Under the pieces are notes generated by a model. The model worked only from the letters and a program-made list of their open reading frames with translations. It ran no database searches and had not been told where the DNA came from. The translations under genes were made by a program, and so were the position numbers. This document shows, piece by piece, positions 5,492 to 64,000 of a DNA stretch of 64,000 bases. Each line of letters begins with the position of its first letter. Position 1 is the stretch's first letter. This stretch comes from Thermoproteota archaeon (GTDB taxonomy: Archaea > Thermoproteota > Thermoprotei_A > Sulfolobales > Ignisphaeraceae): NCBI GenBank assembly GCA_030550585.1, contig JAUQPB010000003.1:209691-273690 (forward strand), given 5' to 3'.

Positions 5492-5632
5492 TCATAATCA
5501 CCGTTCGTGGTTATACAAATTTTGCAACCTAGGCTTAAAAATAGATAGATTCAAATGTTTAATACAAATGTCACTAGCATGAAACGTCTCTTCATAGAAA
5601 TTGATAGGTATTCCAGCTCAAAGCTAAGTACG

Positions 5633-7348: not shown

Positions 7349-8725
7349 CTATTTAAGGAACTTGCTCTCCCATTTCTTTGCTATCTCAACGCTCTGTGAA
7401 ACATCTATAAATAATTTGCATGCCTCTTCAACATCCTCTTCTTTTATTTCGTCTCTGCCCTTCCTCTCGGCAATGATTTTGGCTGGCTGCATTAATTGGA
7501 TTGCATACCTCAAGCTTCTTTCACTTGCTATCTTAACTAAATACTCTATTGCATCCTTAGAGAGTTTTATCTCCTCCTCCTCGGCTCTGATCATTATTAT
7601 TTCCCTTATCTCATCCGGGTTATATGGTCTTACACTTATGATTAGAAGTCTATCCAAAAGATCGAGAGGCATTCCGTGAGGACCTTCATAATCAGTACCA
7701 CGAATTCTTGTTATACCTCTGTTTGTAGCAAGTATAAGTATTGGCGAGAACTCGCTTTCCATCACCCTTGTTAGAAAGCTGAATGCCTCTATATCAAGCA
7801 TATGTACATCGTCTATGAATAACACACCTGGGACAAGGGTTACCTTGCCCTCACTCAACGCCTTTCTAACAGAATCGTCAACAGCTTTTCTGATCTCAGG
7901 ATCTATTTCCCTCTCCTCGGATCCAACGCCAATCAATGATATTACAGCCCTCTTCTGCGCCGCATATGCTTCATCCAAGTCATGTAGTGTAACAGTTCTC
8001 ACAATTTCTTTTTCTTTGAATATCTTTCCCTTTGGCATATCCTCTAAAACCCTAGACGTTTCTATGTCATAGTATCTTGCCTTTTCTATTCCCTTCACCC
8101 TGCCCAACTTGAAAACTTCACCAGAATCGGCATCTATACTTATCAGATCACCCCTCCTTATAGAGAGTTGCGCAAGTTGCATAGCTATCGACTGGTCCAC
8201 CTCTAGCGTTTTCTCCTCATCTTTCGTGGTGAGGGTTATCCTAGCACCACGTGGCACTTTAACATATGGGTTAAAGGGGTGAGACGCTAAAGCAAACTTG
8301 ATCTCCTTTACAACACCTTCGTAAACCCTTCTCAACTCCCTTACTCTGATTCCAATAGCTCTTCTAACAGCCCTCATCAAAATTTCTGTCTTTTTAATTT
8401 CAGTTGAATAGAGCTCAGCACCATTTATCATTACGAAGGGTGTGTCCTCACCAAGCTCTCTCGCTATTGCGATTGCAAGTGCTGTTTTGCCTGAGCCCGG
8501 TGGGCCAACAAGCAATATTCCTCTTCCAGCAAGCTTACCCTCTTTAATCATCTTGACAACTATTCCAGCCGCTTTCCTCGCCTCTAGCTGCCCCACAAGA
8601 CCGTCTGCAATGTATTTAGGCTCGCCTTTCTCATCTAAACCCAGCCCCCTTATGTGGCTATGTGCGCTAATCCTCTTCAACATCTCTCTTTTGGATTCTT
8701 CTTTCACCTCTCTAATCATGCTCAA
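7349..8725 (-). CDS. TIP49/RuvB-like AAA+ ATPase
   Basis: HSHIRGLGL, Walker A GPPGSGKT, Walker B DDVH, ATNRG and PLDLLDRLL. Confidence 0.95.
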   Translation of the reverse strand: MSMIREVKEESKREMLKRISAHSHIRGLGLDEKGEPKYIADGLVGQLEARKAAGIVVKMIKEGKLAGRGILLVGPPGSGKTALAIAIARELGEDTPFVMINGAELYSTEIKKTEILMRAVRRAIGIRVRELRRVYEGVVKEIKFALASHPFNPYVKVPRGARITLTTKDEEKTLEVDQSIAMQLAQLSIRRGDLISIDADSGEVFKLGRVKGIEKARYYDIETSRVLEDMPKGKIFKEKEIVRTVTLHDLDEAYAAQKRAVISLIGVGSEEREIDPEIRKAVDDSVRKALSEGKVTLVPGVLFIDDVHMLDIEAFSFLTRVMESEFSPILILATNRGITRIRGTDYEGPHGMPLDLLDRLLIISVRPYNPDEIREIIMIRAEEEEIKLSKDAIEYLVKIASERSLRYAIQLMQPAKIIAERKGRDEIKEEDVEEACKLFIDVSQSVEIAKKWESKFLK

Positions 8726-8896
8726 TGAACATCACCTATTATATACATTAAGTTTATTTCTATACAATTCCAAGCTTATAACCTTTCATATTAAGTGAGC
8801 TTGCTACTATGACTTAATGAAAGTTCTTAAAAGAGCTTATAAAACAGAAATTTATATCCACATGCAGTCAATAAAAATAGGCAGCGGGTATGTATT

Positions 8897-10339
8897 GTGA
8901 AAAAACAGATTGATTATATTACTATAACTCTTTTGATTATTATCACGGCTGTTCACATATATCTAACAACAATGCAAGCTCTAAACTTTGAAAGAGAAGA
9001 GCTGCAGAGATTCTATTCGGGTGCAAAGGGTTATGTATCTGATGAAGTTTGGTATGTTGATGCTGCTAGAAATATTTTGAGAAAGGTATTTGGGCTAGAG
9101 CCTAAGCAGATAGGGGGATGTAATGCAACAATAGTGTATCCCACTAAAGACGATGCTTTAAAGGCTGCATCAATTGCGCCGCAGTATGGAGTGTCCGTTG
9201 TTACAACATCTTTTAATAAGATAAACGCTATTTATGTTCATGCAAAAGATGGAGATACCATAAAGAGGTTTGCAGATGCCACTAGTGCAAGTGATGTTGT
9301 TTATGGATGGATACTAGGCGATGCTGAGGGTATAAACAATTATCTTAATCTTGAGCACCCGCCAATGGCAAAATATATAATAGCTATTTTTATGGCTTTG
9401 CTAGGGGATAGACCAATTTACTGGCGAATTCCCTCAATTATAATGGGTTCTCTAACAGTTATAATCTCTTTTCTAATTGTGAAAAAGCTCACAAAATCTA
9501 ATGAACTTGGTCTCATAGTAGCTGCAGCAATAGCTGTTGATCCTATGATGAGAAATCTTGCATCTATTGCATTACTAGATATATATGTGGCTATGTCGAC
9601 AGCGCTAGCAATTCTATTAGCCGTTAATGAAAGATATAAAGAATCCATTATAGCACTGGGCTTTGCATCCACATTCAAATTCACGGCACTTCTAGCCTTT
9701 CTACCAATACTTTTGCTATATATAAACAGTCTTGTTAGAAATGGTGAGAGAAGATTCATAAAAATATTTTCTAGATTCGTGGATCTCTTCATACTGATGC
9801 TATTATCCTTTATCTTCTTCCAATTGGTGGTGTCAATACCAATAATATTCAAGTTTGGATTGAGTACATGGATTAATCAAAGTGTTTTAGGGGCTATCTC
9901 ATGGCACCTTAGAGTTAAATGTGTTGGAAGTGGATGTCCTATTGCATCTACTCCCTGGGAATGGTTCTTCGGACTAAATTCTTTCCCTCTCTACATATAT
10001 CCAACAGGAGTGACAGTATATGCACAAGGATTTGTGCCAGCATATGCTCTAAGCTTCATCTTACTGATACTCACAATAGCTTATAGAGGTTTTGACTCTG
10101 CAAGCAAAAAACCTTGGCTTATACTAACTGGATTTGTTCTAGCATATGTAATGCTTTGGCTTGCTGGATCTAGATCACAGTATAGCTTCTATGCTGTTCA
10201 AATAACACCGTATATCTACATCTACCTTCTCACACAGTTGTATGAGTATGTATGGAGAGATGCTATAGCCAAAACCTTCGAAGCATGGAAAAAGGTCTTT
10301 GAGAATACATGGCACATAATCTTGGTTTTGCTAGGTTGA
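8897..10339 (+). CDS. GT-C fold glycosyltransferase (PMT/GT39-like)
   Basis: SDEVWY, EHPP, WRIPSI and many TM helices. Confidence 0.8.
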   Translation: MKKQIDYITITLLIIITAVHIYLTTMQALNFEREELQRFYSGAKGYVSDEVWYVDAARNILRKVFGLEPKQIGGCNATIVYPTKDDALKAASIAPQYGVSVVTTSFNKINAIYVHAKDGDTIKRFADATSASDVVYGWILGDAEGINNYLNLEHPPMAKYIIAIFMALLGDRPIYWRIPSIIMGSLTVIISFLIVKKLTKSNELGLIVAAAIAVDPMMRNLASIALLDIYVAMSTALAILLAVNERYKESIIALGFASTFKFTALLAFLPILLLYINSLVRNGERRFIKIFSRFVDLFILMLLSFIFFQLVVSIPIIFKFGLSTWINQSVLGAISWHLRVKCVGSGCPIASTPWEWFFGLNSFPLYIYPTGVTVYAQGFVPAYALSFILLILTIAYRGFDSASKKPWLILTGFVLAYVMLWLAGSRSQYSFYAVQITPYIYIYLLTQLYEYVWRDAIAKTFEAWKKVFENTWHIILVLLG

Positions 10340-57923: not shown

Positions 57924-58610
57924 CTATCTACACGAGATTATTTTCGTGCCCACAGCCTCCCCCGAGAGAATCTTCTCAAAGTTTCCGGAGTCAAACCCGT
58001 TGAAAACGACAACCTCTATACAACTTCTTTTAATGACCTGCACAGCTATGGGATCCAAAAGCTCGTAGCCTCCAGCCTCAAACCTCTGGCTCATAACCTG
58101 CTCAAGCACATCTATAGATATGCTGTCAAATCTCTTTGCATCTGGAAATCTCTTCGGATCTTTATCATATACCCCATCCACATCAGTTGCATAAAGCATT
58201 CTCCTAATCCCAAGCGTCTCAGCGACCACAGCCGCAACAGCAGCTGTTGACTGCCCCGGCTGAAGACCACCAACAACAACGACTTTGCCAGTGCTCCAAG
58301 CCCTCTGCACATCCTCTATACTCCTAGGTATGGGAACATATGCGTAGTCTCCAAGAGCATATGCAAGCAAAAGCGCATTGATACGCGCAATCTCGATTCC
58401 AATCATATCTGCTTGCGCATTATTCAGCCCCAATGCTCTTGCACATCTTATGTATGTCCTAGCCTGCTGCCCACCACCAACAACGACAGCAATCCTCCTG
58501 CCACTATCAACAGCTCTTATAATAGCTTGCACATACCTCTCGATAAGCTCTGGGCTATCTGGATTCACAATCTTTCCAGATAGCTTTAACAAGACCTTTT
58601 CTCCAGCCAT
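57924..58610 (-). CDS. pyrH: UMP kinase
   Basis: LLKLSG, VVGGG, QPGQSTAAVAA and DVDGVYDKDP. Confidence 0.95.
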   Translation of the reverse strand: MAGEKVLLKLSGKIVNPDSPELIERYVQAIIRAVDSGRRIAVVVGGGQQARTYIRCARALGLNNAQADMIGIEIARINALLLAYALGDYAYVPIPRSIEDVQRAWSTGKVVVVGGLQPGQSTAAVAAVVAETLGIRRMLYATDVDGVYDKDPKRFPDAKRFDSISIDVLEQVMSQRFEAGGYELLDPIAVQVIKRSCIEVVVFNGFDSGNFEKILSGEAVGTKIISCR

Positions 58611-59650
58611 ACCACACACATCCACATACTTCTAGAGTTGCATACCTCTATAGGAATATAAAAGCTTTGAGATCTGGAGAAACCACTTGGATAACTATCT
58701 ACATGATCTATACACCATACTATATAATCAAAGCCAATACCGTTGTATCGATGATTTGCATACATATAATACAATCTCGTAATGCAACTACGAATAAATT
58801 TGTCTGTGCATTGTTCGATACACTAGTATATCGACTAGATTAGTAGCTAATACTCAAAGATCATTCTATTGCTTTACAAAAAATACATTCAATTGAAATG
58901 ACATAGCCTCTGGCCTTGGGATCTGAAGCAAGAAAGCTATATCAAACGGGTTATAGCCCAAGACATTAAAATATCGAAATATGCTGAATATTATGAGAAT
59001 TACTAACATAATGAAGTGTTATGATGATCAATATTGAAATATGTACACTATCTGTATTGAAATAAAGCGAACCAGTTGGTGTATAGGTAAGTCGATCAGC
59101 TGGTACACCTAGTAGCTAGTTATCTAGCTATCCCCAGAACCACCTCAACTAATTTGGAACCCTAAACGCTTTGAGCTAGTAGCGTGGCATCTAGCACTTG
59201 TAAATTAGCGTTTTTGAGACATTTGTTTTGCAACTGGATTTGATAAGGAATTGATTGGAGCTGTTCATGCGATGTTTCCAATTTTGAGATAGAGGAAAAC
59301 AGCGTATATACACCCCATGCAGCATATAGACTCTATTGGATTTCATCAGCCTATGGAGTCTCGTAAAACTGCTTAACTTTACTGGCTGAAAGTTAAGCAC
59401 CACTTAACTACACCATCAACCAGCAAAAGCCCCACAAAACCCGCAGGAAATCTTCACAGACTCTCATCAGCTTCATCAAACCTAAGGAGAGTCTTGAGCC
59501 CAAGATGGTACTCTCAGAGATGTTTGTATCCAAACCAGCCCATGCACATCTCCATAGATCAATTTTCATTAAAAGATATATATACCAGACCTGCTAGCCA
59601 CAATACGTAGGGTAAGAAATAGTTAGTAAGATGGCTATGGATGGATTTGT

Positions 59651-61069
59651 ATGAGCATAGATTCAGAGCAAAGCACTATTCCACGGAACTATGTTTTTGG
59701 TGACGAGGTTCTAGATCAGCTGCTTGCAGGGGGTATAGAGCCGGGGTCTCTGATACTGGTTCTCGGGCACCCTGGTGCGGGAAAATCAACTTTTGCTACA
59801 CGTATAGTCTTCGAGAATGTTATGAGGTATAACATAAAAGGTGTTTATCTGAGCTTTGCTGAGACAAAAGCCAAGTTCTACTCCTATATGAGGAGATTCA
59901 ACATAGATCTGGAGCTGGCAGAGAAGAAACAGCTGTTCGAATTTGTGCAAATGCTTACTATGAGCGGGAAAGACCTTCTAGACTTTACTGTTTCGACCTT
60001 GGGCCAAAAGGTTCTTGGTGAGGGCTACTCGATTGCTGTTGTAGACTCGATAACACCGATACTAAATGTTCTGACAACAGATGAGGCTAGAGCGTTTCTA
60101 CACTCAACGCTATACAACCTAGTGTCTAACACCAACGCTCTTCTCATCTTGATTGCTGACCTCCCATTTGCAGTAGAGACAGTTGATTTGAGGGGTCTTG
60201 AGTTCATAGCTGATGCTGTATTTGTTTTTAAGACAAGGATTGAAAAAGGATTGATACACAGATTCATGGAGATTAGAAAGTTTAGGGGAAAACCAATTCC
60301 AATGGCTGAAATACCGTTCTCCATAGAGGACGGCAGAGGTGTAAGAATGTTGCTATCGCCAACAGTGATACAACCACCATATACAGCCTCTGTAACAAGC
60401 TATAGCGATGAGTGTAGCAACTTGGTTTGGAGAGGGCTTGCCTCTGGAAGCTATGTAGGTGTGGTAGCAACATGTAACGTTATACCATTAACATTTTGGG
60501 CACTTCTAGCAAGAATTGTCTTTAGCTATGGAGCAAACTATGGGATTATATCATTTAGAGACTCGCCAGAGAACATAAAGAACATTCTACGCAATGCTGC
60601 TGGCCTCATGAAAATACCGCCACACTACATTTTGAATAAGGCGGCATTCATTGAAAGTATTCATCCTGCTGCATATTCAACACAGCAGCTAGAGACCATT
60701 ATACGCAATTACATTGATAGCAATATCCAGATCCTTGTATTAGATGGAATCGAATCTCTATATCTATACTACGACCCTATACTTGTTGACAGAATGCTCA
60801 AATCCATATCGATGTACGTCAAATCCAGCCCGTCAGTAATGTTTGAGCTTGTGGACAACATATACACACAGTCACAAACAATGCGATACGACATTATACA
60901 CAAGATTTTATGTGATCAGGAGAAGCTTCTACACAGCGCCACAACCACAAGGACATCAACATCCTATCTAAGAACCCCAAGCTACATAGTAAAGGTGTAT
61001 GATGATGACCTAGCTAAATGCATTGAAACACATCCTTTCACCGTTCCATCAACTTCTCAAAGTGGCTGA
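59651..61069 (+). CDS. KaiC-like RecA-superfamily ATPase, two domains (second degenerate)
   Basis: GHPGAGKST, AVVDS, EFIADAV and IRKFRG; the C-terminal domain lacks Walker A but keeps LVLDG. Confidence 0.88.
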   Translation: MSIDSEQSTIPRNYVFGDEVLDQLLAGGIEPGSLILVLGHPGAGKSTFATRIVFENVMRYNIKGVYLSFAETKAKFYSYMRRFNIDLELAEKKQLFEFVQMLTMSGKDLLDFTVSTLGQKVLGEGYSIAVVDSITPILNVLTTDEARAFLHSTLYNLVSNTNALLILIADLPFAVETVDLRGLEFIADAVFVFKTRIEKGLIHRFMEIRKFRGKPIPMAEIPFSIEDGRGVRMLLSPTVIQPPYTASVTSYSDECSNLVWRGLASGSYVGVVATCNVIPLTFWALLARIVFSYGANYGIISFRDSPENIKNILRNAAGLMKIPPHYILNKAAFIESIHPAAYSTQQLETIIRNYIDSNIQILVLDGIESLYLYYDPILVDRMLKSISMYVKSSPSVMFELVDNIYTQSQTMRYDIIHKILCDQEKLLHSATTTRTSTSYLRTPSYIVKVYDDDLAKCIETHPFTVPSTSQSG

Positions 61070-61074
61070 AGATA

Positions 61075-62226
61075 ATGCCAGACGTGTATTATGAAGTTGA
61101 AGATAGTGAAATATATGTAGTTAAAAAAGAGCAGAAAGAGCCTCTAGCCCTGCTGGGCGTAACTTGGGTTGGTTTCGAGCTTCGTAGCCATGTTGTAGGA
61201 GGGCTCCATATCAGAAACTGGCTTGAGATACTGCAAACGGTGAAAGACCTTGGCTTCAACGCGATAAGAATACCGTTTTGCTCTGCCTCTGTCAGACCAA
61301 GGGTTTTTCCACATATTCGCTCGATAAACTACGCTCTTAACCCAGATCTCCTAGGTCTGGACTCTCCCACAATACTAGAGAAGATCATTGCAAAAGCAGC
61401 TGAGCTTGGCCTCTACGCGCTTCTGAATTTCCATAGCATCAGCTGTGTTGTTATGGAGCCTCTTTGGTACACACCATTGTTTAGTGAAGAGGATTTCATA
61501 TCCACTTGGGTTTCCATTGCAAAAAGATATGGGAGATACTGGAATGTCATAGGTGCAGAACTCCTCAATAATCCGCATGGTAGAGGCCCTAGACAGGAGT
61601 ACTATACAAGAGGAGATTCAGCTACTTGGGGTGTTGGCAATACCAAAACAGATTGGAACTTAGCCGCTGAGAGAGTGGGCAAGGCGATCTTAGAGGTTGC
61701 TCCCCACTGGCTGATAGTTGTCAAGGGCACTCAATTCACGAATCCCAAATCAGATGATGTGAAGCACTACCCAGACTCTACATATTGGGGCGAGAATCTC
61801 AGAGCGGTGAAAGACTATCCAGTTAATCTACCGAGAAACAAGCTGGTGTACGGAGTAAATACCTATGGCCCTGACATGTATGTCCAAGACTATTTCAACG
61901 ATCCAAGCATCTTCCCGGAGAATCTCCATGTCATATGGGATCAGAACTGGGGCTATGTCAAAAAGCAACTGCGATACCCCGTGGTCATAACTGAGTTTGG
62001 TGGTAAGTGTGGCGATGGCGATCCCAGGGATGCTGTGTGGCATGAGAAATTCATTGAGTATCTAATTGAAAATAACTTTTGCCAGTGGTTCTATCTAGCG
62101 CTGAACCCCGAGCATGTTGAAACAGGTGGTCTTCTGAAAAACGATTGGAGAACTGTTAAAGAGAATAAATATGCTCTTTTGAAGAGGCTTATGGAGTATT
62201 GTAGAAGCAGGTATTCAAAGGCATAG
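61075..62226 (+). CDS. GH5 endoglucanase homolog with no signal peptide and a mutated acid/base residue
   Basis: LGFNAIRIPF, EPLWY, WNLAAER, WGENL and ITEFGG; NEP is replaced by NNP. Confidence 0.88.
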   Translation: MPDVYYEVEDSEIYVVKKEQKEPLALLGVTWVGFELRSHVVGGLHIRNWLEILQTVKDLGFNAIRIPFCSASVRPRVFPHIRSINYALNPDLLGLDSPTILEKIIAKAAELGLYALLNFHSISCVVMEPLWYTPLFSEEDFISTWVSIAKRYGRYWNVIGAELLNNPHGRGPRQEYYTRGDSATWGVGNTKTDWNLAAERVGKAILEVAPHWLIVVKGTQFTNPKSDDVKHYPDSTYWGENLRAVKDYPVNLPRNKLVYGVNTYGPDMYVQDYFNDPSIFPENLHVIWDQNWGYVKKQLRYPVVITEFGGKCGDGDPRDAVWHEKFIEYLIENNFCQWFYLALNPEHVETGGLLKNDWRTVKENKYALLKRLMEYCRSRYSKA

Positions 62227-62246
62227 AAAATACCTATAACAATTAG

Positions 62247-63305
62247 CTATGTTTCTATATCTTCAAAGTCTATGCTATATCTAAGTATTGCTATGATCCC
62301 CCCAAGCATCTTCACCCTCTCCCCAGGTGGCGACCTACCCGGAACTATAACTACTGCACCACCCTTCTCCACAACATTTCTTAGAATTGCCTCAACCTTC
62401 TCTCGATTCTCATCAAATCCCGCAAGCATGTCATCAACCACAAGAAGCTTCTCAACAGCACCTATACTAGCAGCAAGCTCCACATGGCTAAGCCCATATG
62501 CAACCCTATTAATATCTTTTGCAATGAGGTAATCAAATTCCTCAAGAATCCTAGACGCTTTCTCTATCGAGGAGTCTCTAATAATATTTCTAACAACATC
62601 TCTGTTTAGAAGTTCTTGAAGTCCCGCATACCCCCCATTAGCAACAGTATCCAAAAAAACCTTTATCCCACTATCCAGCGAGGCTATAGCGTCCCTCACC
62701 TTATTTTTCAAACTTCCTGGAGATGCCACAACAACAGCCTCAACATTATATCTGTGAGCAGCCTCAATAATTTTCTTAGCAAGCTCTGAAACAAGCTCTT
62801 TTTCAGCAGCCTCAAAATATTCATCGCTTAGAGGAAGAGAAACATTTCTCGAATCCAGAATCTTCATACCCTGCATCTGAAGAACTGCTATAGCATATTC
62901 ATCGAAATCAACAGCCACGAGCATGACATTCAATGGCCTAACAATCTTCATAACCTCGTCTAAGACCCTTGGATCCCAAAAAACCTTTTGAACAGTAATC
63001 TCATCGCCAACACCAACAGAGATTGTGTGGTGAGATCCCTTAACACCAAACCTATCAGGACCTTCAACAACTATCCCATGAATCCTAAGCCTATTTGTAA
63101 AAGGCTGAAACTCCATCTTCTCAACCCTCACAGCCAAGATCATAGGTATCCTTCTCTTCTCATCGCCAATGCTAACATCCCTCGAAGTCCTAGCCCTAAC
63201 AATATCACCTCTAGATATAATCATACTCAGAATCCATAAATCATCAAAACTATCAATACTAATACTTAAAACACCATCCCTATAATCCAAAACCTCTAGT
63301 CTCAT
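62247..63305 (-). CDS. pelA: Pelota (Dom34) ribosome rescue factor
   Basis: DDLWIL, FQPFTNRLRIHG, GSHHT, GAVEKLLV and LGGIIAILRY. Confidence 0.93.
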   Translation of the reverse strand: MRLEVLDYRDGVLSISIDSFDDLWILSMIISRGDIVRARTSRDVSIGDEKRRIPMILAVRVEKMEFQPFTNRLRIHGIVVEGPDRFGVKGSHHTISVGVGDEITVQKVFWDPRVLDEVMKIVRPLNVMLVAVDFDEYAIAVLQMQGMKILDSRNVSLPLSDEYFEAAEKELVSELAKKIIEAAHRYNVEAVVVASPGSLKNKVRDAIASLDSGIKVFLDTVANGGYAGLQELLNRDVVRNIIRDSSIEKASRILEEFDYLIAKDINRVAYGLSHVELAASIGAVEKLLVVDDMLAGFDENREKVEAILRNVVEKGGAVVIVPGRSPPGERVKMLGGIIAILRYSIDFEDIET

Positions 63306-63326
63306 CACATACCACACAAAGATAAA

Positions 63327-63647
63327 AACGGTGCACGGCCCCCACTATATGGATGTGTATTGTCTATACAAGCCAACCACACCATACCTCCCCCCGTAGA
63401 CCCGCGAACGTCGACGGCCGGGGGTTAGGCTGCTCCCTTCCGGGCCTGACCGTCCCCCCGTTAGGATGGTAGCCACCTCCCTACAGAGATGGCCCCATCC
63501 ACCGTCGACCCCACGGGGCGGGGCTCATAGCGGTGTGGTTGGCTTGTATAGACAATACACATCCATATAGCGGGTTACTGGCTCCCGCATTCGCCCATTT
63601 CGGGTCTGGGGGAGGGCGAGCCCCCCGAGCCCTACCCGTGCACCGTT
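63327..63647 (-). ncRNA. ffs: Signal recognition particle (7S) RNA
   Basis: Helix 8 GGTCAGGCCCGGAAGGGAGCAGCC, 12-bp terminal helix AACGGTGCACGG/CCGTGCACCGTT, TATA-like AAAGTTTATT about 25 nt upstream. Confidence 0.93.
63345..63570. repeat. Perfect 39-bp inverted repeat (63345-63383 and 63532-63570) inside the SRP RNA gene
   Basis: CTATATGGATGTGTATTGTCTATACAAGCCAACCACACC and its exact reverse complement. Confidence 0.95.
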
Positions 63648-63845
63648 ATAGCATTGTGTTTGTGGGCTAATAAACTTTATATGTGGTTTAAGAATCAATA
63701 CTTTGTCTAGCTAATAATTCATGTGATAGTCAAATAGGTTTAGTCTCAATAATGTTGATACTGTGTATTCTGATTTGGTTTCCATTTGCCTTTACGCCAT
63801 GTTTTTAAGCTTGTTTTCTTCTTATCTCTTTTTTCGGTGGTTTGA

Positions 63846-64000
63846 ATGGCCTGTACAAAGCCTGTTAAAGTTAAGCTGCCTGATGGTGGGGAGAAGGAGC
63901 TGGTTCCAAAGAAGGTTTGGAGCCTATCTCCAAAGGGTAGGAAAGGAGTTAAGATAGGGCTGTTCCAAGACCCAGCATCAGGAAAATACTTCAGAGCTAA
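63846..64000 (+). CDS. creN7: Chromatin protein Cren7 (runs off the window; absent from the ORF track)
   Basis: [51 protein letters not shown]. Confidence 0.95.

Follow-up and report, generated by a model that had tools for sequence, protein, structure and literature searches.

A conserved and co-inherited gene pair encoding a KaiC-like ATPase and a remodelled, signal-less GH5 protein in Ignisphaera-type archaea

The window (i.e., the whole 64,000-nucleotide [nt] stretch of DNA that was analysed) includes two adjacent genes on the forward strand, the strand on which all of the features described here are located. The upstream gene (59651..61069) encodes a KaiC-like ATPase of 472 amino acids (aa) with two RecA-like domains, and its TGA stop codon ends at position 61069. 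An intergenic spacer of 5 nt follows (61070..61074; AGATA), as the first-pass annotation had reported, and the ATG at 61075 opens the second gene (61075..62226), which encodes a signal-less, 383-aa (beta/alpha)8 protein of the GH5 subfamily-1 type in which three of the eight canonical cleft residues are gone. The 5-nt spacing points to tight coupling, and the two genes are probably co-transcribed. In the orthologous loci, the two genes overlap by 1 nt at one extreme and lie 21 nt apart at the other. The matches found in public runs are DNA contigs from hot-spring metagenomes, with no RNA run among them. A role of the pair in a defence system was considered and dropped; PADLOC gave only P-loop-level matches for the ATPase (E values of 5e-4 or weaker) and nothing for the GH5 protein.

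Upstream of the KaiC-like gene lies a conserved noncoding element of ~50 nt (59369..59421), in which a 10-bp hairpin (GCTTAACTT / AAGTTAAGC) whose loop varies precedes an invariant tail containing a third CTTAAC half-site. The genome contains a single copy, and the element is 85 to 89% identical in four other loci, including one NEP-type locus (see below); the remaining intergenic DNA is unalignable. An Rfam search of positions 58000 to 64000 returned only an SRP RNA, with no match to the element at an E value of <=0.1. This element may represent a cis-regulatory site or a small RNA, and its membership in the KaiC-GH5 unit is uncertain.

Residues 20 to 233 of the KaiC-like protein matched the Pfam KaiC family (PF06745; E value, 6.8e-35; 120.9 bits against a cutoff of 26.6). 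The AF2 model of the protein (pLDDT, 78) aligned with KaiC chain 8zn5_C over 441 columns (Foldseek E value, 1.2e-27; TM score, 0.74) in a match spanning both domains, and the top listed Foldseek matches were all full-length KaiC chains. The protein is thus predicted to consist of two RecA-like domains in tandem, folded as in KaiC. The N-terminal domain contains a Walker A motif (GHPGAGKST, residues 39 to 47; 59765..59791), the catalytic Glu (E71; 59861-59863), the Walker B Asp (D132; 60044-60046), and an RKFRG motif (residues 209 to 213), all of which are invariant in the 13 orthologues and paralogues aligned; this domain is presumably an active ATPase. The C-terminal RecA-like domain (roughly residues 247 to 472; 60389..61066) is of the inactivated KaiC type, i.e., no GxxGxGK[ST] motif is present at the equivalent alignment position, and its one Pfam match is a weak match to DUF835. 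An inactivated second KaiC-type domain (iKaiC) is described as an archaeal feature (PMC5847659).

The GH5 protein matched the Pfam Cellulase family (PF00150; E value, 2.5e-38; 132.6 bits against a cutoff of 23.5). Among solved structures, it aligned with chains of the Pyrococcus horikoshii endoglucanase EGPh (3axx and others; E value, 8.6e-144), with residues 3 to 379 corresponding to residues 38 to 415 of the 458-aa EGPh precursor. The GH5 protein therefore represents the enzyme without its signal sequence and C-terminal tail, and the end-to-end likeness to the P. horikoshii endoglucanase claimed by the first-pass annotation holds against mature EGPh. Its AF2 model (pTM, 0.83) contains eight strand-helix units, as predicted for a (beta/alpha)8 fold. 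The absence of a signal peptide, also noted from the sequence at first, was confirmed by three features: the reading frame is open for just 16 codons 5' of the ATG with no start codon there, the N terminus is acidic, and hydropathy is low (the top 15-residue Kyte-Doolittle mean, 1.15, falls on the first barrel strand). The open reading frame (ORF) is intact, as had been stated, with no stop codon and no frameshift. The region is also represented by contigs from four further public runs, for which no indels are listed; one of these contigs (2840 nt) covers positions 60535 to 62300 with 20 substitutions and 0 gaps.

Eight cleft residues are described for EGPh: Arg102, His155, Asn200, Glu201, His297, Tyr299, Glu342, and Trp377 (PMC4853606). 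Mapping of the GH5 protein on EGPh revealed that five of them are kept (R65, H120, N165, Y264, and E307) and that E201, H297, and W377 are replaced. Codon 166 (61570..61572), at the end of strand 4, is AAT, so that Asn stands where EGPh has the acid/base Glu201; this turns NEP into NNP, and the codon is two changes away from GAA or GAG. In the clade to which the window's protein belongs (the NNP/NSP clade; 11 sequences aligned), this position is Asn in seven and Ser in four sequences, and it is Glu in all 4 NEP-type KaiC-linked proteins and all 11 other GH5s. Codon 262 (61858..61860) encodes Asn for His297 (H-x-YGP to NTYGP), with Asn in 10 clade members, Asp in 1, and His in the 15 others. 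Codons 341 to 343 (62095..62103) read L-A-L for W377-S378-W379 (YWSWNP to YLALNP); the W377 position is Leu in 10 clade members and Asn in 1, and Trp in 15 of 15 others. A clade-specific charge reversal is seen at codon 217 (61723..61725), which is predicted to lie at the end of barrel strand 5 on the catalytic face: Lys is present in all 11 clade members, whereas the 15 others have Glu (EGPh Glu252). His at position 323 is another of the conserved substitutions in the clade. The nucleophile (EGPh Glu342) is retained at codon 307 (61993..61995; TEFGG, end of strand 7) and is Glu in 26 of 26 aligned sequences; R65, H120, N165, and Y264 are invariant along with it in the clade (11/11). The three altered motifs and the kept nucleophile had all been read correctly in the first-pass annotation. 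With respect to GH5 membership, the protein thus has the fold and the nucleophile, lacks the acid/base Glu, and keeps four of the six other cleft residues. All eight residues are present in 148 of the 166 GH5 stretches of the 150 best 50%-identity representatives, and the window's combination of substitutions at E201, H297, and W377 occurs in none of these 150. Of the positions that both groups conserve, 34 lie on the catalytic face, 9 of them switched, and 93 lie in the rest of the protein, 5 of them switched (Fisher P = 0.002); strand ends in the secondary structure of the model served as a proxy for three-dimensional (3D) mapping of the catalytic face.

It had been proposed at the outset that NNP-type homologues be sought and examined for KaiC linkage and purifying selection. 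The search revealed a monophyletic NNP/NSP clade (support, 100/100) on a long stem (0.42), comprising seven distinct Ignisphaera-type lineages. All members of this clade are substituted in the same way, which argues against chance. Its sister is a group of NEP-type, KaiC-linked GH5s (100/99), and the secreted GH5s of the genus branch next; the GH5 protein derives from multidomain endoglucanases that the genus itself secretes. The NEP-type sister proteins (L013/L088, L087, and L089; cluster P0008) are likewise signal-less, share the operon layout and the pelota locus with the NNP clade, and already carry R156N, G158S, and W379L. In contrast to the window's protein, they keep all eight cleft residues (NEPH, SPHVYGP, GEFGG, and YW..NP) as well as Glu252, and their KaiC partners are just 46 to 49% identical to that of the window. 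Because the sister reads YWALNP, W379L came first, and because the sister clade is KaiC-linked with all eight cleft residues in place, the linkage predates the catalytic loss. The order of events indicated by these comparisons is as follows: the signal peptide and tail were lost and linkage to the ATPase was acquired with an intact cleft, a state surviving in the sister clade; later, in one descendant clade including the window, the acid/base Glu, His297, and Trp377 were replaced and Glu252 became Lys. Catalytic loss was accompanied by a burst of fixed changes, which in the structure model cluster on the catalytic side of the barrel. One genome (G013) apparently holds both kinds of pair, with L086 matching L008 and L088 matching L013.

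A KaiC orthologue is located directly upstream in every NNP/NSP locus with flanking sequence, i.e., in seven distinct lineages (L001/L003, L012, L004/L005/L083, L006/L084, L007, L008/L086, and L085), and in the three NEP-type lineages. A conserved neighbourhood with a partner protein, the property looked for in archaeal KaiC hubs, is therefore found in both groups. The pair stays linked when its genomic place changes, and three contexts are seen: it is located at the pelota locus in G000, G004, G005, G007 (C6 copy), and G010; in G015, its surroundings are of the EamA/fumarase type; and in L085, a cation-efflux gene lies next to it. KaiC matches of at least 51% identity were found in the same 6 of the 16 other genomes of the genus that hold an intact GH5 gene, the remaining genomes reaching at most 42%, although co-occurrence among close relatives does not count as independent evidence. 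In G001, both genes contain stop codons and adjoin pelota (co-decay), and 9 of the 16 genomes have no match to the pair. The nine genomes without the pair and the broken remnants in G001 indicate that it is dispensable. In Ignisphaera-type archaea, the KaiC-like and GH5 genes are thus conserved and inherited together as one unit. Comparison of the neighbourhoods revealed no gene for a transcription factor, regulator, DNA-binding protein, or output protein within the conserved unit. A scan of genome contigs with the GH5 protein yielded distant bacterial and Thermococcus homologues alone (27 loci; 31 to 45% identity) and no relatives from the genus. Complex prediction for the two proteins, run with separate alignments and without controls, gave scores of 0.26 and 0.00 (mark, 0.32), which speaks neither for nor against an interaction. 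A fusion search found a KaiC domain in none of 15 longer homologues, which is weak negative evidence.

The least saturated pair of loci (L001 versus L012) gave a dN of 0.049 and a dS of 0.376 for the GH5 gene (dN/dS, 0.13) and a dN/dS of 0.17 for the KaiC-like gene; most other pairs yielded unusable ratios because dS is saturated, with dN far below dS in the distant pairs. The GH5 proteins are also more conserved (72 to 76% identity) than the neighbouring pelota in the same genomes (61 to 64%). Both genes of the pair are therefore under purifying selection, and the same holds for the NEP-type sister (dN/dS, 0.15).

We see about an even chance that the GH5 protein works together with the KaiC-type ATPase as a subunit that binds a ligand or partner rather than hydrolysing a substrate. 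Such a protein would no longer hydrolyse beta-glucans via the standard two-glutamate retaining mechanism, and its cleft, remodelled and less acidic, would now accommodate another ligand or the surface of a protein. Serving as a regulatory or adaptor subunit of the ATPase, without hydrolytic activity, it would couple the occupancy of this cleft to the ATPase/autokinase cycle, either modulating the cycle or being modulated by it. The loss of Trp377 and His297 from the -1 subsite argues against simple retention of cello-oligosaccharide binding, and a changed ligand or a protein partner would fit this loss better than ancestral sugar binding. A more specific version, which we put forward tentatively and rate well short of even, is that the cellulase fold was recruited as the receptor or adaptor of a KaiC switch, with the cleft binding a cytoplasmic metabolite or a loop of the ATPase and thereby gating the ATPase/autokinase cycle. 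One candidate for the metabolite is a glycan from an imported polysaccharide that carries a phosphate or some other modification, and the NEP-type sister pair would represent a living intermediate between enzyme and receptor. The interpretation given in the first-pass annotation, a glycan-binding sensor or non-hydrolytic enzyme feeding a KaiC-type switch, is partly supported: it survives two of the refuting outcomes named there, relaxed selection and a lack of conserved linkage. Since the linkage arose with an enzyme-built GH5 protein, as the NEP-type sister with its full cleft shows, it was not brought about by the loss of catalytic residues, and since it is common to a competent-looking sister under purifying selection, the partnership needs no inactive GH5 protein. 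It may even serve a purpose unrelated to sensing.

Invariance of the nucleophile and of the four residues that orient it (R65, H120, N165, and Y264) in all 11 clade members is not readily explained for a pure binder and fits retained chemistry. A serious rival, which we hold to be less likely than the subunit reading, is that the GH5 protein is an enzyme of altered chemistry, in which E307 still forms a glycosyl-enzyme intermediate and the ATPase is a co-expressed regulator or an energy-coupling partner. The substrates might have good leaving groups (e.g., glycosyl phosphates, nucleotide sugars, or activated glycosides), or the acid/base role might pass to a different group or to an exogenous anion (e.g., phosphate), permitting a cytoplasmic transglycosylase- or phosphorylase-like activity. 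Plant myrosinase (GH1) works without an acid/base Glu on a good-leaving-group substrate. The substitutions in the clade (Asn/Ser at 166, Asn/Asp at 262, Lys at 217, and His at 323) are specific and conserved rather than random; E201N and E252K make the cleft less acidic, which would suit an anionic donor; and the sister with the full catalytic set is likewise cytoplasmic and KaiC-linked, which makes an enzymatic role plausible for the lineage. However, no candidate replacement acid/base was placed in 3D, much of the -1 subsite gripping the attacked sugar is gone without Trp377 and His297, and the combination, being absent from the 150 best representatives, has no characterised GH5 precedent.

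The two genes might also share a transcript without a joint function, the GH5-like protein having an independent role (structural, chaperone-like, or in storage-glycan binding) and the adjacency reflecting shared ancestry in one genus. That all loci come from one genus-level group makes it possible that the linkage is partly inherited rather than selected. The KaiC+iKaiC paralogues of these genomes, moreover, occur in many unrelated neighbourhoods with no recurrent partner, and no general rule of KaiC plus pseudo-enzyme emerged. Nevertheless, we regard independent functions as improbable: the pair is intact in three different genomic contexts, the spacing stays between a 1-nt overlap and 21 nt, the presence, absence, and decay of both genes coincide across 16 genomes of the genus, and saturation of synonymous sites between most lineages indicates ample time for the genes to separate. 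Least credible of all, and in our judgment next to negligible, is that the GH5 gene is decaying into a pseudogene or was produced by misassembly. It is true that the catalytic cleft lacks three of its residues and that the copies in G001 are truly broken, but this explanation is contradicted by ORFs that are intact in seven lineages, by the low dN/dS and the identity above that of pelota, and by contigs from other runs showing the same frame without indels. The fixation of the same substitutions in seven lineages behind an orthologous KaiC-like gene, together with the low dN/dS, is not the pattern of decay.

Makarova, Galperin, and Koonin reportedly proposed in 2017 that archaeal KaiC-like ATPases serve as a "signal transduction hub." These ATPases are widely proposed as signalling hubs, with few having known inputs. 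Our search of the literature on GH5 pseudo-enzymes and Ignisphaera GH5s found nothing on the KaiC-GH5 pair, and no glycoside-hydrolase-derived KaiC partner was found in the literature searched, the scope of which did not extend to the neighbourhoods of the 2017 hub paper. If the receptor reading were true, it would be the first case in which an input module of the KaiC network derives from a glycoside hydrolase, and the route by which that module evolved would still be preserved. The ancestry of the GH5 partner is clear, so the likely ligand class can be guessed, which provides a defined two-protein KaiC case. Both the catalytically equipped form and the remodelled form are extant and can be compared side by side. 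The KaiC partner in L007 is identical to an NCBI protein named from the type strain Ignisphaera aggregans DSM 17230, which makes expression and biochemical tests feasible. A natural GH5 protein that is under strong constraint with its nucleophile kept and its acid/base gone would either be a novel type of glycan-derived binding protein or point to unusual chemistry. The genes of the NNP/NSP clade are at present annotated as "glycoside hydrolase family 5 protein" or "endoglucanase," and they should not be tallied as cellulases in hot-spring metagenomes.

The window's ATPase shares the double RecA-like KaiC fold with cyanobacterial KaiC and the archaeal KaiC-like proteins ArlH and CirA, and it resembles known KaiCs in its Pfam KaiC match and in the Walker A/B motifs, catalytic Glu, and RKFRG of domain 1. 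It is only 15 to 19% identical to solved KaiCs. Unlike circadian KaiC, it has no Walker A motif in domain 2 and falls below every NCBIfam equivalog cutoff (73.2 versus 408 bits for PRK09302, circadian KaiC; 62.2 versus 215 bits for ArlH). KaiC-like proteins are described as regulatory switches in archaea (PMC5847659, PMC13286277) and are discussed as post-translational switches (PMC13286277). The GH5 protein is 56 to 57% identical over the whole catalytic domain to EGPh (PH1171; PDB 3axx, 2zum, and 3qhm-3qho; GH5 subfamily 1), which is described as an extracellular hydrolase (PMC7469102). The strand order of EGPh matches the predicted (beta/alpha)8 order in the GH5 model, and all four EGPh disulfide cysteines (C106-C159 and C372-C412) are kept, as are R102, H155, N200, Y299, and the nucleophile E342. 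The GH5 protein differs from EGPh in lacking both the signal peptide and the C-terminal tail, its gene sits behind that of a KaiC-like ATPase, and it has Asn for E201 and H297, Leu for W377 and W379, and Lys for E252.

Among proteins of other families, the GH18 chitinase-like lectins and the GH28 pseudo-pectinases of leaf beetles are pseudo-enzymes derived from glycoside hydrolases. Pseudo-enzymes are described among plant-cell-wall-degrading enzymes (PMC6549527). The window's GH5 protein resembles these examples in being a duplicated glycoside hydrolase paralogue that has lost catalytic residues and is still under selection. In contrast, the GH28 and GH18 proteins are secreted and stand alone, whereas the GH5 protein is cytoplasmic, archaeal, and coupled to an ATPase in an operon; it further differs from them in that the nucleophile is kept and the sugar-stacking residues are also lost.

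The KaiC-like gene (59651-61069, + strand; 472 amino acids [aa]) and the GH5 gene (61075-62226, + strand; 383 aa) are open reading frames that lie 5 nucleotides (nt) apart, in agreement with the first-pass annotation. Contigs of four other public runs cover this stretch with no indels listed, including one 2,840-nt contig from another run that spans 60535-62300 with 0 gaps. Residues 20-233 of the KaiC-like protein match Pfam KaiC (PF06745; E 6.8e-35), and the GH5 protein matches Cellulase/GH5 (PF00150; E 2.5e-38) and the solved Pyrococcus horikoshii endoglucanase EGPh (E 8.6e-144). GH5 residues 3-379 align with residues 38-415 of the 458-aa EGPh precursor; because only this part is covered, the GH5 protein lacks both the signal peptide and the C-terminal tail. 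Its frame is open for only 16 codons 5' of the start, with no start codon in that stretch, and the N terminus is acidic, which bears out the earlier claim that the protein lacks a signal peptide.

The cleft residues common to EGPh and other GH5 enzymes, as given in an excerpt of the EGPh literature (PMC4853606), are Arg102, His155, Asn200, Glu201, His297, Tyr299, Glu342, and Trp377. Alignment with codon checking showed that five are kept (R65, H120, N165, Y264, and E307) and three are replaced (Glu201 by N166, His297 by N262, and Trp377 by L341); the motif details first described for this gene, including the AAT codon at 61570, were all correct. All four cysteines of the two EGPh disulfides (excerpts of PMC4853606 and PMC3691470) are present.

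A search of 61 related genomes, the window's own among them, found GH5 matches in 10 genomes, 7 of them among the 16 other genomes in the genus. Aligning these matches with database clusters and metagenome loci defined a clade of signal-less proteins of ~380 aa (the NNP/NSP clade), every member of which has N or S at 166, N or D at 262, L (once N) at 341, K in place of Glu252, and an invariant nucleophile. In a maximum-likelihood tree of 30 sequences, the clade has a support of 100/100 and a long stem (0.42 substitutions per site). Counting as fixed the positions with one residue in at least 10 of 11 clade sequences and another in at least 9 of 11 other GH5s, we identified 14 clade-specific positions. 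Nine of them lie on the catalytic face, which we defined, for each of the eight barrel strands, as its final four residues and the three that follow (56 residues in total), with strands taken from an AF2 model (pLDDT 75; pTM 0.83) in which several loops have low confidence. Among positions that both groups conserve, 9 of the 34 on the face were switched, compared with 5 of the 93 off it (Fisher p 0.002). The cleft is probably less acidic, because E201N removes a carboxylate and a Glu at the end of strand 5 is reversed to Lys.

The NNP-type GH5s make up a conserved clade; they are not the product of gene damage. By the Nei-Gojobori method, the sole pair with unsaturated synonymous sites (loci L001 and L012) had a dN of 0.049 and a dS of 0.376 (dN/dS 0.13), so that the purifying selection anticipated for this gene was indeed found. 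A closer pair (L004-L005) gave a dN/dS of 0.32, resting on very few changes (dS 0.04); in the remaining pairs dS was saturated and dN was far below dS. In the same genome pairs, GH5 identity was 72 to 76%, versus 61 to 64% for pelota, its neighbor. In a 1.84-billion-protein library, the top 150 representatives contained 166 GH5 stretches, of which 148 carry all eight cleft residues; none has the NNP-clade combination, the clade itself being masked by a secreted-type representative at 50% clustering. Seven of the 166 are degenerate, being additional domains in proteins with multiple GH5s.

Several observations concern other GH5s. The seven degenerate stretches (in P0045, P0094, P0162, P0172, and P0120) lack one or both catalytic glutamates and represent a separate route to inactive GH5 domains; P0045, P0094, and P0162 each contain several GH5 stretches, a canonical one alongside degenerate ones. 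P0010, the cluster representative that bears the name of the 458-aa P. horikoshii endoglucanase, carries Phe299, as in the Y299F mutant PDB chain; thus, an engineered mutant sequence acts as representative. A second kind of signal-less GH5 (~370 aa; contig C1 of genome G015 [L081, 4382-5488] and clusters P0012 and P0013 [Infirmifilum lucidum]) has intact catalytic residues and no KaiC neighbor; its placement in a clade of its own means that GH5s of cytoplasmic appearance originated at least twice in these archaea. The second GH5 of the window's own genome (G000, contig C7; L078, 3983-7321) lies within a 1,113-aa secreted-type protein with the full catalytic set and intact motifs, followed by a 578-aa T2SSF-domain protein (type IV pilus/secretion platform; 7589-9322). 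At locus L076, another KaiC+iKaiC paralogue also adjoins a T2SSF-domain gene.

A KaiC-like orthologue lies directly upstream of GH5 in every NNP/NSP-type locus with upstream sequence, which upholds the proposed conserved linkage. The pair occurs in distinct lineages (window/G007-C6; G007-C3; G004/G005 [L083]; G010 [L084]; G015; G013-C37 [L086]; and L085), with spacings from a 1-nt overlap to 21 nt. Full- or near-full-length orthologues are 51 to 100% identical to that of the window, and the cut fragments in L085 and L086 are 47% and 41% identical over the part present. KaiC matches of at least 51% identity occur in exactly the 6 of 16 other genus genomes with an intact GH5, and those elsewhere in the genus reach at most 42%; these counts come from close relatives and are not independent. 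In G000 and G010 the pair is flanked by an amino-acid kinase gene and pelota, and in G007 (C6 copy), G004, and G005 it likewise adjoins pelota; the G007 C3 copy has the same upstream genes, its contig stopping within GH5. In G015 the pair lies between EamA transporter and fumarase genes, and in L085 it adjoins a cation-efflux gene; therefore, the unit stays together on moving. The sequence beside pelota in G001 contains fragments of the two genes, both interrupted by stop codons. None of 15 longer homologues proved to be a KaiC-GH5 fusion.

Other features of the locus were recorded. A ~50-nt noncoding element with a 10-bp hairpin and a third CTTAAC half-site (window 59369-59421, + strand; L083, 2681-2731; L084, 3076-3127; L087, 1748-1794; L082, ~5509-5560) is 85 to 89% identical across species amid unalignable intergenic DNA. 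It occurs once in the genome, always lies 230 to 870 nt 5' of the KaiC-like gene at NNP-type and NEP-type loci alike, and has no match in Rfam. An archaeal SRP RNA (RF01857; 63332-63642, - strand; 189 bits, E 6e-46) lies just past the pelota-like gene (62247-63317, - strand) in window coordinates. With respect to the KaiC-like gene, the amino-acid kinase gene upstream of the unit has one orientation in the window (57924-58625, - strand) and the opposite one in G004- and G010-type loci (L083, 1263-1931, + strand; L084, 1761-2429, + strand). Genome G007 carries two copies of the region of THUMP methyltransferase, amino-acid kinase, gap, KaiC, and GH5 (C6, L003/L046; C3, L012/L082), one 99 to 100% and the other 86 to 91% identical to the window; the region may truly be duplicated, or the assembly may combine two strains.

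The AF2 model of the KaiC-like protein (pLDDT 78) matches full-length double-domain KaiC structures (8zn5_C: E 1.2e-27, TM 0.74, 441 columns). Domain 1 has an invariant Walker A motif (GHPGAGK[ST]T), E71, Walker B D132, and RKFRG; no Walker A motif was present in domain 2 in the alignment. The protein is a KaiC-family paralogue, neither circadian KaiC nor ArlH, because its scores are far under the NCBIfam cutoffs. Paralogues of ~470 aa give one to eight matches per genus genome, in unrelated contexts. Orthologues are named "ATPase domain-containing protein [Ignisphaera sp.]" and [quoted passage not shown] at NCBI; the KaiC encoded at L007 is identical to the second of these.

The sister group of the clade (support 100/99; L013/L088, L087, L089, and cluster P0008) is also signal-less, follows a KaiC-like gene 46 to 49% identical to that of the window, and likewise occupies the pelota locus. 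These NEP-type GH5s keep NEPH, SPHVYGP, GEFGG, Trp377, and Glu252, are under purifying selection (dN/dS 0.15), and share R156N, G158S, and W379L with the NNP clade. The next branch outward comprises the secreted multidomain GH5s of the genus. The order of events follows from this topology: a secreted cellulase was duplicated, export signals were lost and the ATPase was coupled, and the cleft was then remodeled, with the NEP-type sister as a surviving intermediate state. Genome bin G013 apparently holds both kinds (NSP-type, C37/L008; NEP-type, C47/L013), and one metagenome supplied both of the corresponding contigs, L086 and L088; its NEP-type pair occupies the pelota locus, where other species have an NNP-type pair, and pair duplication, replacement, and transfer within the genus are candidate histories. 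In L089 (5001-6117), the NEP-type GH5 lies in two frames near residue 173 (frameshift or sequencing error), with intact KaiC and pelota neighbors.

The two genes form a co-inherited, selected unit, and the catalytic face of the GH5 paralogue was rebuilt after it joined the ATPase. By the established GH5 mechanism, the window GH5 would be incapable of standard retaining hydrolysis of unactivated glucans, because the acid/base Glu, His297, and Trp377 are missing, and the conserved new residues may point to a new binding function. We favor, with moderate confidence, the reading that the GH5 acts as a non-hydrolytic ligand- or partner-binding subunit working with the KaiC-type ATPase. The glycan sensor originally proposed is harder to sustain: loss of the -1 sugar platform weakens cello-oligosaccharide sensing, and the KaiC-linked NEP-type sister weakens pseudo-enzyme status as the explanation of the pairing.

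That same sister suggests that catalytic capacity would be possible for this lineage in a KaiC-linked setting, and the nucleophile and all four residues positioning it are invariant; an enzyme with altered chemistry is accordingly the main rival, possible but less probable than the binding subunit. Mere co-transcription without joint function is improbable, because the unit moves together and both genes decayed jointly in G001. A pseudogene is contradicted by the conservation of the clade under selection and is hardly credible.

The KaiC-GH5 unit is confined to one genus, and no report of the pairing was found in the literature searched, outside which lies a 2017 paper on KaiC neighborhoods that may mention it. 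Judged from sequence, the unit appears to give a clean enzyme-to-non-enzyme series, and bench tests look feasible, since the KaiC partner has a matching counterpart among proteins named from a cultured type strain. Pseudo-enzymes derived from glycoside hydrolases are already a known kind, as are KaiC-like ATPases with varied partners, and the Walker A-less domain 2 resembles the "inactivated KaiC" domains mentioned for archaea in an excerpt of PMC5847659.
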